Shown: in pieces, positions 30,358 to 39,913 of the stretch | How positions within the stretch are numbered: the first letter of the stretch is position 1 | Layout: every line of letters starts with the position of its first letter | Source: Escherichia phage JacquesWildberger_Bas92 | Sequence record: PQ850610.1 | DNA: 64,000 bases | Direction: 5' to 3' (one strand) | Position numbers and translations under genes: made by a program | The notes under the pieces: model-generated | What the model was told of the DNA's origin: nothing | Databases searched by the model: none | Seen by the model: the letters and a program-made list of their open reading frames with translations, nothing else

Positions 30358-32202
30358 TTAGTGTGTATGCATCCAGTTTAACCCAATCTGACAATCAGAA
30401 GCCAGAGGACATTCCATGTTCAAGTACTCACCAGCCTTCTTAACACAAAGCTCGGTGTACTCTTTGAGTTTCTGTACATCATTACGGTTCACTGAGAACT
30501 GGCCCTCATCGTGCATATCAATTACCTTAGCACAACGAACTCCATCTTTCTCAATCCACTTGTTAAGGAACATCATAGCATATTTCATAACAACAGCACC
30601 AGCACATTGCAGGAGTGTGTTAAGGGCTTTATGAACCATAACCTTACCAGTGGCATCCCGTCTCATTGTAATCTTACGACCATCAACGCCAATCAAATAC
30701 CCTTGAGCAGCTTTCTCTGTCATACGATCAATGAGGATTGCAATACATGGGTTCTCTGCCAAGAAGCGTGCTCGCATCACTGAACCTTCGTCAGCTCCAC
30801 CACCTACGATTGAACCAAGCTTAGCATCACCAGCACCATAGTTAAACGCGTAGATAAACGTTTTAGCGTTGTCACGAGTAGGAAGACCAGCAAGTTTCTG
30901 GTTGTGGGAGTGGATATCACCTTCAAGAAGGATATCACGATACATAATAGCAGAAGCTAAACCACGTTCTGCCAGAGCTTTCTTAGCTGGATTATTCTCT
31001 TCGATTGCTTCAGCAAGCATATCCCTACACTCTTTAATGAGGTAGTGAGCGAGCATACGAAGTTCAAGTCCAGAACCATCATACCCTAAGAATACTTCTT
31101 TACCAGCGGGTATGTAATATTTGTAAGCACCTACAGGCTTATCTTTCTTCCCCGGCTTACCTTTCTCGTAAATTACGTTAGTACCTTTTCGTATATAACA
31201 ACCATCAGGAACAACGTTAGTAATAACGAAAGGACGAGAGTGATCACTGTCTGAATTATAGTCAGACTCAAACAAACTGCGACACTCATGACCAAACAAA
31301 CCACGGGAGGGAATATTAACCACGATACGATGTTTGAATCGAAAAGTTGGCGTAGCGCAGCTGTTAGCTTCTGCCGAAAGTTTACCATCTTCGCGTTCCT
31401 TTGCTATGAGTCCACTGATAAGACCTAGCCTGTGAGCCGCTACAACGCGCCTCTTAAGCAAACTTCCAACACTCCCTAGCTCGCCCCCTAACCCTTCTTC
31501 AAGAGTCTCCTCGAGGTTTGTAGGAGCTGTAGGCCACTTGTTTGAGGTAGCTAGTGCTATCTTAATCTCATCAAACGTGATAGGTCTACTTCGGTTAGGG
31601 TTTAAACCTAAACCAAACACATAAGCCTTCATATAGTTCTTAGTCTTAAACCTAAAATGCTTCTCTAAGAACCTCCTAATATCTGCGTCAACCATCTCGG
31701 CTGTCTGCTTCTGTTTAGCATTACCTCGCATCCAAGCTGAATACCATGCTTGGTATGTCCCATACTTTCGAATATCTTTCTTGATTTCAAAAGTATTCCA
31801 AGGTTTCTTTGATACGTTAAACTCTGGAGGAAGAAAACCCTCATCCATAAGGGCTTCTTTAACTCGTGCATCTTTCGATGGGTCAAAGTCTACATACTCA
31901 ACACAGGTGAATGCTCCACCAATGTCTTCTCTCTTAAGGCCAACTCTATCACAGTAGGCTTGAGGCCACTTCTGTAAAGCTCCAGACTTCTTAAATGGCT
32001 TCATATAAGTAGAGCCATCTAATCTCATCTTAGGTAAGAGAGGGATCAGTTCTTTGTCGATATTAACAATAATCTCTTTAAGGAGGTGAACATACCACCG
32101 AGCATTTCTTCGGTTGAAACTCACTCCGTGCTTCGCTTGCTTAGAGATTATATCAGCGACAGTCATCTCTGTCAAAAATGGGAGAGCGTCCGGGTTGCTC
32201 AC
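30358..32202 (-). CDS. DNA polymerase, family A, polymerase domain only
   Basis: 614 aa; motif A (LGYDGSGLELRMLAHY), motif B (RDNAKTFIYAFNYGAG), motif C (IDMHDEGQF); no 3'-5' exonuclease motifs in this ORF. Confidence 0.85.
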   Translation of the reverse strand: MSNPDALPFLTEMTVADIISKQAKHGVSFNRRNARWYVHLLKEIIVNIDKELIPLLPKMRLDGSTYMKPFKKSGALQKWPQAYCDRVGLKREDIGGAFTCVEYVDFDPSKDARVKEALMDEGFLPPEFNVSKKPWNTFEIKKDIRKYGTYQAWYSAWMRGNAKQKQTAEMVDADIRRFLEKHFRFKTKNYMKAYVFGLGLNPNRSRPITFDEIKIALATSNKWPTAPTNLEETLEEGLGGELGSVGSLLKRRVVAAHRLGLISGLIAKEREDGKLSAEANSCATPTFRFKHRIVVNIPSRGLFGHECRSLFESDYNSDSDHSRPFVITNVVPDGCYIRKGTNVIYEKGKPGKKDKPVGAYKYYIPAGKEVFLGYDGSGLELRMLAHYLIKECRDMLAEAIEENNPAKKALAERGLASAIMYRDILLEGDIHSHNQKLAGLPTRDNAKTFIYAFNYGAGDAKLGSIVGGGADEGSVMRARFLAENPCIAILIDRMTEKAAQGYLIGVDGRKITMRRDATGKVMVHKALNTLLQCAGAVVMKYAMMFLNKWIEKDGVRCAKVIDMHDEGQFSVNRNDVQKLKEYTELCVKKAGEYLNMECPLASDCQIGLNWMHTH

Positions 32203-32218
32203 TTTATACTCCTTTAAA

Positions 32219-32641
32219 TTATTGGTAAAGTAAATCTGTAAATGCTTGGTTGTCTTCTACTACATCTAGCAAGGTTGCTTCGTTACTATAAGACCTAACC
32301 GTCCCGTTGACAACTGTCCGAGTAGGAGAGGGAGGTGGTGTATGGTTAGCTCTAGCTTCGCGAGGTTGCTCTCGTACTAAATGAGCCATAGCCATTTGGT
32401 TAGCGACTTCTTCTCTTTCTCGAATAGCTCTCTGAATATAAGCTAGCTTCATGCCCCAAGCTTCTTCAAATTCTTGAGGATGTTTGTCACTGATAACCAC
32501 ATATTGACGTTCAGGGATACCAGAGCGAATCTCTGATAAGAGTTCACAGAACAAATCCAGTTCGTGTTCAGTGAGATTCATTTCGATATCATCCCACTTG
32601 AGAACTAGGAAACGGTTTTGATATCTAGTCGGTAATGGCAT
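32219..32641 (-). CDS. hypothetical protein
   Basis: 140 aa ORF upstream of polymerase. Confidence 0.45.
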   Translation of the reverse strand: MPLPTRYQNRFLVLKWDDIEMNLTEHELDLFCELLSEIRSGIPERQYVVISDKHPQEFEEAWGMKLAYIQRAIREREEVANQMAMAHLVREQPREARANHTPPPSPTRTVVNGTVRSYSNEATLLDVVEDNQAFTDLLYQ

Positions 32642-32644
32642 AGC

Positions 32645-32899
32645 TTAACCTTTAGGGAATGGGATGAGGTTTTCTACTGCAACACGGAATTCTTTCTCTA
32701 CATCTTTATTCTTATAAGAAATAAATTTCCCATCAGCACCACGGAGGATTACGTTAGTACGAGCTGTTTTTGGGTTATGACTGATTTGGTTTGCAATGAG
32801 ACTAATGTTGAGTTTAGTGTTGTGGTTATTGGTGAATTTCCACTTAGCCAGACGATTAGTCATTACATCAATGATAGTTACAGTTTTTACAATAGACAT
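32645..32899 (-). CDS. hypothetical protein
   Basis: 84 aa ORF. Confidence 0.45.
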   Translation of the reverse strand: MSIVKTVTIIDVMTNRLAKWKFTNNHNTKLNISLIANQISHNPKTARTNVILRGADGKFISYKNKDVEKEFRVAVENLIPFPKG

Positions 32900-38103: not shown

Positions 38104-38112
38104 TCTTATTCC

Positions 38113-39357
38113 TTAGTTGTTTGTTTCTATGTCAAAAGAGAATCCACGACCCGCTTCATCGGCAAACCGAGCTGTATGGGTTTGAGGCTCTAATACTTCA
38201 GGGTTGTTAGCAATAAAGCGAGCGGCGAGATTATCTTCCACATCTTGACTAGAGGGCTGACGTGCACTAACGTTGAAGCCATTCGGTCGACCACGAGAAG
38301 GACTAGACATCCATCTTTCCATAGAATCACTTGTAACACCAAGAGCTTCTTCAAAAGATGTTCTACGGGTAGAGCTTAGATTTCGTGCTTCATGTGCCAC
38401 TCTTGCAGGGGTTACAAATAACCCTTCAATTGCATTATGTCGATTAGGTTCATCTTCCCGACCAAGGAGATCACCTCCTGCATTAGTTGTTAAGTTTGTC
38501 AACCCTTCAGACCAATACGCACGAATCTGGCTAGAGCCATAAATGCCTGACATTAACTGAATCTCTTCATAAGGTATATCAAAGAATCGACTCATGTCTC
38601 GGTTAACACAATACTGAGCACTTGTTGTATCCTCAATAAGAGCAACCTGACCCCGTTCGTTGACCAGATGACTAACCGGCTGAGGTGTGGGAAGGTGTCG
38701 AGTTTGGGCCATGTATTGATATGCAGCTGCTGGATAGGAAAATCTCAACACTTGCGAGTTAGGCCACTTCTTGTGAACATACCTGATTTCACGACTAGAA
38801 ACAACCACTGGACAAGGGGCGGTCATAGCCAAGTATCCATGAGGGGTCATGAATAAGTTATCAAGAGTCATCGCACCACGGCACATCATAGGAAAATTAT
38901 CCAATACCTCTTCAATAGAAGTAGGATAATTAAACATGAATTGGATACGAACACCATTCCACTGAAACTCAATAATATCAGTGAATGTTAATTGAGAACC
39001 CCCAGCATATGGCTCATCTGTAGCTTCAACAAGAAGAGATGAATACTCAATATCTTGTGATTCAAGCCATTCCTTCACATTACTTTCAATCTCCCGCCCA
39101 AGCATTTGCCACTGCTCGGTTGGGATAAAGGTGTTTCGAGTTCTTGGTGTTTGTCCTCTGACAATAAAGATATCGATGTCATGTGGAGCTGTGTTATTAA
39201 GAACAGCATCACGAATAGCCCCACCAGTAATGATAGGGCAAATACCATCTGGAATCAAGTTGTTGTTAATCAACTGTTCAATGAAGTGACGACCAACAGT
39301 GATATCAGGTTGTTGAGCAACCTTATCTTCAATTCGGTTAATCGGGATAACAATCAT
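38113..39357 (-). CDS. Pol-beta-superfamily nucleotidyltransferase (CCA-adding enzyme or poly(A) polymerase-like head)
   Basis: Motif GGAIRDAVLNNTAPHDIDIFI (GGxxRD...DxD); start moved to ATG 39357 directly after the exonuclease stop (TAAaATG). Confidence 0.5.
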   Translation of the reverse strand: MIVIPINRIEDKVAQQPDITVGRHFIEQLINNNLIPDGICPIITGGAIRDAVLNNTAPHDIDIFIVRGQTPRTRNTFIPTEQWQMLGREIESNVKEWLESQDIEYSSLLVEATDEPYAGGSQLTFTDIIEFQWNGVRIQFMFNYPTSIEEVLDNFPMMCRGAMTLDNLFMTPHGYLAMTAPCPVVVSSREIRYVHKKWPNSQVLRFSYPAAAYQYMAQTRHLPTPQPVSHLVNERGQVALIEDTTSAQYCVNRDMSRFFDIPYEEIQLMSGIYGSSQIRAYWSEGLTNLTTNAGGDLLGREDEPNRHNAIEGLFVTPARVAHEARNLSSTRRTSFEEALGVTSDSMERWMSSPSRGRPNGFNVSARQPSSQDVEDNLAARFIANNPEVLEPQTHTARFADEAGRGFSFDIETNN

Positions 39358-39358
39358 T

Positions 39359-39913
39359 TTACATTTTCCAATATAATGAAGGTGGGTCATAAGGATCAAA
39401 TCCTGTGTGTTCACACAAGTATTTATAAACCTTAACAGTTAAGTTAACGTCCTGTTCACAGTAAGTAAACATATCTTCAGTGAAAGCATCCCATGCTTCC
39501 TCCTGCTCACCGTAATCTCCTTTAAGTTCCCCTAAGAACTCACCCCATTGCTTCAAACCGTGACCTCTTGGGCCATGTCTAGGGTCGCCTTTCGGATACT
39601 CAGGACTGTCACCAATACGGTCAGGTTTAAGATATCGACTAAGACACAGAGTGTCGAAGACGTTAAAACGATATTTAATCAGATTGGGATATATTTTCTT
39701 CAGAGCACAAAGGTCGAAGTCAATAATGTTATGGCCCACGAGCACATCAGCTTCTGTAAGTTTACGAATCCCATCTTCAATTTGGTGAGGCCTGTAGCCC
39801 CACCTTTCACCAGTTTCAACATCGAAAATGTAAATACACCATACTTTAGTTATATCATCGTACAGTGCGTTACTTTCGATATCAAATGCAAACACTTTCT
39901 TTTTCTTTACCAC
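39359..39913 (-). CDS. 3'-5' exonuclease (DnaQ-like proofreading domain), separate gene
   Basis: 184 aa; Exo I (FAFDIES), Exo II (VGHNIIDFD), Exo III (YCEQDV). Confidence 0.8.

Follow-up and report, generated by a model that had tools for sequence, protein, structure and literature searches.

The DNA of Escherichia phage JacquesWildberger_Bas92 (sequence record PQ850610.1) raises the question of whether a 3'-5' exonuclease and a family A DNA polymerase encoded by two distant genes are pieces of one proofreading enzyme. Within the stretch analyzed here (64,000 nucleotides; hereafter, the window), which is that of a phiEco32-like podophage, the exonuclease is encoded by a 184-amino acid (aa) gene and the polymerase by a 614-aa gene. 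A preliminary description of the locus, made from the sequence alone, had interpreted this arrangement as a polymerase split into two genes, with a holoenzyme assembled from separate polypeptides. The analyses presented here establish that the two genes are detached halves of one T7-type family A polymerase, with matches far beyond chance. In addition, they make it quite probable that this is a phiEco32-like replicative polymerase split at the linker between its exonuclease and polymerase domains, with the two halves re-associating into a proofreading polymerase.

Identification of the exonuclease and polymerase subunits

The preliminary description had assigned the motifs FDIES (Exo I), HNIIDFD (Exo II) and YCEQDV (Exo III) to the 184-aa gene at 39359-39913. 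Both the open reading frame (ORF) and the motifs were found exactly as described (Table 1), and the encoded protein matched the Pfam family PF01612 (E 3.8e-9; 37 bits, for a cut-off of 23.6). The exonuclease aligns with residues 1-193 of T7 gp5 at 31% identity (E 2e-17), and the five residues of the DEDDy signature (D11, E13, D67, Y151 and D155) show no variation across 34 aligned sequences, which comprise the window's exonuclease, 32 stand-alone homologs and the T7 exonuclease domain. The counterpart of T7 D65 is D67, the second Asp residue of HNIIDFD, which constitutes the catalytic aspartate of Exo II and entails a small correction to the preliminary description. The AlphaFold2 (AF2) model of the exonuclease, with a predicted local distance difference test (pLDDT) score of 93, returned T7 DNA polymerase chains as its 27 best matches in the Protein Data Bank (PDB), before any free-standing nuclease, with template modeling (TM) scores of 0.6-0.73 against the T7 gp5 exonuclease domain.

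The location of polymerase motifs A, B and C in a separate 614-aa gene at 30358-32202 was likewise corroborated by the ORF, by a match to PF00476 restricted to residues 361-611 (E 4.7e-23; 82 bits, for a cut-off of 34) and by the alignment of all three motifs to those of T7. The key residues of motifs A (D375/E380), B (R443/K447/Y451) and C (H564/D565/E566) are invariant among 48 homologs, with Y451 occupying the position of T7 Y526. A Foldseek search of the PDB with the AF2 model of the polymerase (pLDDT 91) placed T7 gp5 in ranks 1-27 (E 1e-25 to 3e-19), with Pol I fragments appearing from about E 1e-15. The hhalign alignment with T7 (E 1.5e-74) begins at polymerase residue 1, which corresponds approximately to T7 residue 203, and extends to residue 704. 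The comparison with T7 gene 5 hence maps the exonuclease to residues 1-193 and the polymerase from about residue 203, placing the break within the inter-domain linker. No exonuclease motif or domain was detected in 30358-32202, and the Pfam scan of the 614-aa protein yielded no match to an exonuclease family.

Table 1. Location and supporting evidence for the features of the split polymerase locus and its surroundings.
Feature	Position in window	Strand	Protein residues	Basis or remarks
3'-5' proofreading exonuclease subunit, DEDDy type, GTG start	39359..39913	minus	184 aa	ORF, PF01612, T7 gp5 alignment
Exo I, FDIES	39872-39886	minus	10-14	
Exo II, HNIIDFD	39713-39733	minus	61-67	
Exo III, YCEQDV	39446-39463	minus	151-156	
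Polymerase subunit, T7-type family A, no exonuclease domain, GTG start	30358..32202	minus	614 aa	Own AAGGAG ribosome-binding site
Motif A, DGSGLELRMLAH	31045-31080	minus	375-386	
Motif B, RDNAKTFIYAFNYGAG	30829-30876	minus	443-458	
Motif C, HDE	30502-30516	minus	564-566	
Thumb segment, counterpart of the T7 thioredoxin-binding domain	31879..32037	minus	56-108	hhalign to T7 residues ~258-338
Helical thumb insertion	31528..31800	minus	135-225	Alignment, AF2 model
Intervening cargo, 17 genes	32203..39358	minus		Pfam; Bas93 and phiEco32 annotation
Nucleotidyltransferase	38113-39357	minus		Pfam/annotation
dCTP deaminase	37570-38103	minus		
Dps/ferritin-like protein	from 36402, start uncertain	minus		Annotated coding sequence (CDS) in Bas93 of 192 aa
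Thioredoxin, CAPC active site; candidate accessory factor only	35881-36156	minus	91 aa	PF00085, E 3.5e-13
ThyX	35209-35865	minus		
NAD-ligase Ia domain, stand-alone	34850-35206	minus		
PhoH-like protein	33703-34446	minus		
T7 gp4-like primase/helicase (Toprim and DnaB_C)	39907..41697	minus		Directly upstream of the exonuclease gene
5'-3' exonuclease (FEN / T7 gp6-like)	25428..26246	minus		phrog_107 E 4e-64; weak PF02739 match; outside the interval flagged in the preliminary description

Colinearity with fused polymerases

When concatenated, the exonuclease and the polymerase are colinear from end to end with seven natural fused polymerases of about 600 aa, drawn from the homologs of the polymerase, at 45-48% identity. 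The break immediately precedes a conserved helix of the linker, W..(I/F)..E..VA.II(S/T).Q, and the junction contains approximately 15 residues without counterpart in the fused homologs. These residues therefore provide no space for intein halves (about 100 and 35 aa), in agreement with the earlier remark that neither an intein nor a trans-splicing arrangement is apparent.

An exhaustive search with the exonuclease against 1.8 billion representative proteins identified 2,718 relatives, and 86 of the 150 best matches were at least 550 aa in length. These long matches were combined with the seven fused homologs from the polymerase search and with T7 gp5 into a set of 94 fused sequences. All 94 were also matched by the window polymerase, with the exonuclease match lying N-terminal in every case, which identifies the 184-aa protein as a domain detached from a polymerase and not as an unrelated nuclease. 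The rank correlation between exonuclease and polymerase similarity over these fused homologs (rho 0.02), intended to reveal a common history of the two parts, was uninformative, given that the exonuclease scores are compressed. Among close relatives, all 50 exonuclease homologs are stand-alone proteins of 105-212 aa, and the approximately 108 best polymerase homologs are too short to hold an exonuclease domain.

The 14-kb region around the split shares 99.2% nucleotide identity with that of Escherichia phage AidaStucki_Bas93 (hereafter, Bas93) and about 93% with those of phiEco32 (Gordonclarkvirinae, Kuravirus) and dozens of similar E. coli podophages, with Bas93 and LAMP being the nearest relatives of the window (99%). 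Both intact ORFs recur in roughly 100 independently sequenced phage genomes. They co-occur in every lineage checked, and relatives down to 45-50% identity (about 45% at the lower end) conserve both ORFs with all their catalytic residues.

Origin of the split

The history of the split was investigated with a neighbor-joining tree of 425 polymerase-domain columns, rooted on T7 and assessed with 200 bootstraps. Exonuclease-less polymerases, the window polymerase among them, were monophyletic in 197 of the 200 bootstraps, and a clade of fused polymerases was sister to them in all 200. The exonuclease-less clade, within which the two-gene arrangement has a single origin, takes in the LUZ24-like Pseudomonas phages (Bruynoghevirus), with genomes of about 45 kb, and the phiEco32-like phages, with genomes of 70-110 kb. 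The polymerase of cyanopodovirus S-SBP1 fell outside this clade in 200/200 bootstraps, so that at least two independent events have cut the same linker.

Gene order is also conserved across the clade. In the window, the whole region is encoded on the minus strand, and 7,156 bp separate the exonuclease gene from the polymerase gene. The preliminary description had counted more than ten genes between them, including thioredoxin, and the annotation of the 99%-identical Bas93 raises this number to 17. The GTG start of the exonuclease gene overlaps the stop codon of the primase/helicase gene and is preceded by GGAG 7 nt upstream, and the two genes are apparently translationally coupled. This adjacency recurs in Bruynoghevirus PhiCHU, in the metagenomic relative L005, whose polymerase is 49% identical to that of the window, and in S-SBP1. 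The order helicase, exonuclease, cargo, polymerase is shared by the window, PhiCHU and L005, with gaps of 7.2, 1.7 and 3.2 kb, respectively, and in the fused sister L006 the order is helicase, ligase, fused polymerase. The simplest reading of the sequence comparisons is that one old split in the inter-domain linker, common to LUZ24-like and phiEco32-like phages, would have preceded the gathering of cargo between the two halves, and that the exonuclease gene kept the ancestral adjacency of genes 4 and 5 seen in T7.

The exonuclease-less polymerases also share insertions in the polymerase domain. The helical thumb insertion spans 60-91 aa in all 43 aligned exonuclease-less polymerases, compared to 0-4 residues in five fused polymerases from the sister clade. 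Most members of the clade carry an additional insertion before motif A, which encompasses 56 aa in the window, and the phiEco32-like subgroup presents a further insertion of 32 aa in the fingers.

Proposed assembly of the two subunits and alternative explanations

In the proposed scenario, an ancestral single gene would have been split at the linker between the 3'-5' exonuclease and polymerase domains. The exonuclease gene would have stayed directly after the primase/helicase gene, and the polymerase gene would have come to lie 7.2 kb downstream on the same strand, with a variable set of small genes and genes for nucleotide metabolism accumulating between them. The exonuclease and the polymerase would be translated independently, each gene having a ribosome-binding site and a GTG start to itself, and the two polypeptides would then come together again, without a covalent bond, as a proofreading polymerase that resembles T7 gp5 and acts together with the gp4-like primase/helicase. 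Physical association of the two subunits, with proofreading taking place in the complex, is the most likely outcome by analogy, because the exonuclease domain is reportedly a structural requirement in family A polymerases and the published AF2 complex of the S-SBP1 exonuclease and polymerase superposes on an unsplit polymerase (PMC10201439). For the phiEco32/LUZ24-type split, no biochemical report of a functional proofreading holoenzyme was found in the papers searched.

Two observations weigh against this scenario. The C-terminal tail GFDPxNPP is conserved in the stand-alone exonucleases of the phiEco32-like branch, but it is missing from the exonuclease of the LUZ24-like PhiCHU, and hence does not provide a universal docking motif. 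Furthermore, two strong terminator-like hairpins, with 10- and 12-bp stems followed by T-runs, are found on the minus strand in intergenic positions (32941-32964 and 36368-36395). Their location between the two genes makes separate transcription of the subunits possible and would allow for unequal amounts, so that the exonuclease and polymerase genes may belong to different transcription units.

These hairpins would equally fit a 184-aa exonuclease that is free-standing or associated with the helicase, and that engages in proofreading in trans, end processing or degradation of host DNA without stably binding a polymerase that works exonuclease-less. Such an exonuclease could also be expected from the tight coupling of its gene, in every lineage examined, to the primase/helicase gene and not to the polymerase gene, but adjacency to the helicase simply reproduces the ancestral order of genes 4 and 5. 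Outside the clade, moreover, each of the nearest relatives of the exonuclease forms the N-terminal part of a fused polymerase, its predicted fold matches T7 gp5 better than any stand-alone nuclease, and an exonuclease-less polymerase co-occurs with it in every lineage checked. Together with the reported structural need for an exonuclease domain and the predicted docking of the S-SBP1 pair (PMC10201439), this evidence makes a free exonuclease improbable.

Two further explanations carry a negligible probability. The split could be an artifact or a product of decay, be it through sequencing or assembly error, rearrangement in this isolate or pseudogenization of the polymerase, but the conservation data exclude these possibilities: the same two intact ORFs are present in the roughly 100 genomes and in the 45-50%-identity relatives mentioned above, with every catalytic residue kept. 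The products could also be joined at a later stage by a split intein, trans-splicing or programmed frameshifting. Introns and homing-endonuclease inserts do exist in relatives, but they lie inside the polymerase gene, at motif B, and not at the exonuclease/polymerase junction, where the unaccounted residues could not accommodate intein halves. The two genes, moreover, are 7 kb apart, have a ribosome-binding site and a start codon each, and are separated by 17 expressed-looking genes. Joining by any of these routes is thus excluded by the alignment and conservation evidence, and re-association of the two separately translated halves stands as the preferred explanation.

The phage thioredoxin

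The preliminary description had also pointed to the thioredoxin gene lying between the two halves, given that thioredoxin is a processivity factor of T7 polymerase in E. coli. The presence of the gene and the T7-type nature of the polymerase are borne out, but the processivity role that they hinted at has little support, as the binding segment is short, the phage thioredoxin is truncated and split relatives lack it. In its full form, the idea would have the phage thioredoxin (35881-36156) acting as a third, dedicated processivity subunit on the polymerase thumb, as TrxA does on T7 gp5, within an all-phage holoenzyme of three polypeptides. Several features speak in its favor. The polymerase is of T7 type and retains a homologous counterpart to part of the thioredoxin-binding domain of T7, and the phage thioredoxin contains a CxxC site and matches E. 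coli TrxA (E 4e-9). Its gene is located between the two polymerase genes and is conserved in phiEco32, 7-11, Privateer and GAP52-type phages, and thioredoxin has been proposed in print as a processivity factor for Privateer (PMC7881722).

Against this role, the counterpart of the thioredoxin-binding domain spans about 53 aa, compared to about 80 aa in T7 (some 28 aa shorter), and its length remains at 50-55 aa in all 48 homologs analyzed, regardless of whether a phage thioredoxin is encoded in the genome. The phage protein aligns only to TrxA residues 24-107, the N-terminal 20 or so residues being absent. No thioredoxin homolog was detected in any of the Pseudomonas phage records searched, and LUZ24-like phages, though split, are therefore devoid of it. 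The interval between the exonuclease and polymerase genes of L005, which presents the same split, also lacks a thioredoxin; a 90-aa ORF in this interval was checked as a possible candidate and found not to be one. In S-SBP1, where the thioredoxin-binding segment is similarly shortened (by about 30 aa), AF2 modeling yielded no thioredoxin complex (PMC10201439). Furthermore, the thioredoxin gene sits among nucleotide-metabolism genes, in the vicinity of those encoding ThyX and dCTP deaminase, which makes a redox role equally plausible. A dedicated processivity subunit is hence doubtful.

A more speculative possibility, to which we assign a low probability, is that the thumb insertion could serve as a docking platform for the free exonuclease, for the truncated phage thioredoxin or for both. 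This would generate a phage-encoded holoenzyme of three subunits, in which the stoichiometry of proofreading could be tuned apart from polymerase expression. If so, the split clade would have re-engineered how a T7-type polymerase holds together.

Genomic context and neighboring genes

Several features of the locus bear on its annotation. As listed, the nucleotidyltransferase ORF starts at GTG 39414 and overlaps the end of the exonuclease gene. Its real start is likely to be ATG 39357, one base past the exonuclease stop codon, giving a protein of 414 aa and leaving the helicase, exonuclease and nucleotidyltransferase genes tightly packed in series. The stand-alone NAD-ligase Ia protein, annotated as 'DNA ligase' in relatives, consists of 118 aa that encompass the NAD+-binding domain alone (PF22745, E 2.5e-35), with neither an adenylation nor an OB domain.

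Within the polymerase gene, a perfect match to the sigma-70 consensus with an extended -10 element (TTGACA, 17 nt, TGnTATAAT; 12/12) was identified on the minus strand at 32147-32175. It is contained in polymerase codons 10-19, where Ile is encoded by ATA, and is oriented as the polymerase gene itself, so that a transcript starting at this site would lack the polymerase start codon. The site is identical in Bas93 and phiEco32 and is not present in the distant relatives L005 and PhiCHU. By a simple estimate, about 0.02 such 12/12 matches are expected by chance in 64 kb, counting both strands. In Bas93, the polymerase gene (99.7% identical) is interrupted at motif B, after polymerase nt 1354 (window position ~30849; L001 3936-4436), by a 705-bp insert that harbors an endonuclease VII ORF, and the gene is annotated there as a joined CDS; the window does not carry this insert. 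Many N-terminal polymerase fragments of about 450 aa are found in databases, suggesting that introns or homing endonucleases are common near this point of motif B.

Further away from the split, a 248-aa protein of unassigned family (27711-28457, minus strand) has an acidic C-terminal tail whose last residue is Phe (...YEDDNDSPF), and the C-terminus of the primase/helicase is similar in style (...ADGASPW). We take the acidic, Phe-ended tail to be reminiscent of the C-terminus of the T7 gp2.5 single-strand-binding protein (SSB). The 248-aa protein presents no detectable sequence similarity to the gp2.5-like SSB of PhiCHU, to Pfam families or to PDB chains. Upstream of the primase/helicase gene, a module on the minus strand (41917-51296; L004 1-3280) encodes a glutamine amidotransferase, amidoligases, a COOH-NH2 ligase, a RimK-like ATP-grasp protein ('S6 glutaminyl transferase') and a gamma-glutamyl cyclotransferase. 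The aminotransferase, ATP-grasp protein and cyclotransferase of this module are also present in LUZ24-like PhiCHU, in unchanged order. Lastly, the 5'-3' exonuclease constitutes a third nuclease/polymerase function with a gene of its own, and a published statement on phage YF01 supports the separate encoding of this enzyme (PMC9965538).

Comparison with known systems

The split between exonuclease and polymerase was already known, as it is annotated in GenBank and RefSeq and has been described in several papers. Descriptions of it in phiEco32-like and LUZ24-like phages date back to 2008. According to notes in the phiEco32 RefSeq record, neither exonuclease domain is present in gp53, and the 3'-5' exonuclease domain is found in gp74. 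Polymerase and proofreading functions were reported in 2012 to be encoded by separate genes in all LUZ24-group phages, and in phiEco32 as well (PMC3517423). In 2023, this separation was reported to be common to all members of the Kuravirus group and their relatives (PMC9965538), and the fission of exonuclease and polymerase genes in T7-like polymerases was analyzed (PMC10201439). The additions made here are incremental: the phylogeny supporting a single origin, the independence from S-SBP1, the variable length of the cargo interval (1.7 to 7.2 kb) and the clade-specific thumb insertion. The locus thus carries little weight as a discovery, and its residual value lies in providing a natural experiment in which the covalent link between the proofreading and polymerase domains of a family A enzyme was broken on at least two occasions, both times at one and the same linker, with one of these splits stable across a large and diverse phage clade. 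These phages offer a convenient system in which to ask if an exonuclease can provide proofreading in trans, and if a phage-encoded thioredoxin takes the place of the host factor on which T7 depends; T7 itself fails on E. coli trxA-minus.

The closest known system is that of phiEco32, in which gp74 (3'-5' exonuclease subunit) and gp53 (DNA polymerase) represent the same genes in the same order, with about 98% protein identity for the polymerase. The intervening cassette of phiEco32 is 8.0 kb long and contains 20 genes, compared to 7.2 kb and 17 genes in the window, and nothing essential is different. LUZ24-like PhiCHU (gp33, exonuclease subunit; gp41, polymerase) belongs to the same clade as the window and presents the order GGACT, primase/helicase, exonuclease, small genes, polymerase. 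Its gap, however, contains no thioredoxin, ThyX or dCTP deaminase genes, its polymerase (545 aa) lacks the 32-aa fingers insertion and its exonuclease has no GFDPxNPP tail. The PolA of S-SBP1 resembles the window polymerase in being of T7 type, in being cut at the same linker and in having its exonuclease gene adjoin that of the primase/helicase. In S-SBP1, however, close relatives such as Syn5 are unsplit, and the exonuclease gene shares 40 nt with the polymerase gene as the result of a recent +1 frameshift (Czernecki et al. 2023, PMC10201439), whereas the two genes of the window are separated by 7,156 bp following an old split. Each half has its best match, in structure as in sequence, in T7 gp5, and a gp4-like primase/helicase is encoded upstream in the window too. 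Yet gp5 is a single chain of 704 aa that makes use of host thioredoxin through a thioredoxin-binding domain on the thumb, at residues ~262-338, that is about 28 aa longer, and the insertions of the window polymerase in the thumb (91 aa), before motif A (56 aa) and in the fingers (32 aa) are missing from it. With respect to the T7-like family A class (cluster 5 of PMC10201439), the window polymerase displays the characteristic motifs, but its exonuclease domain resides on a different polypeptide.

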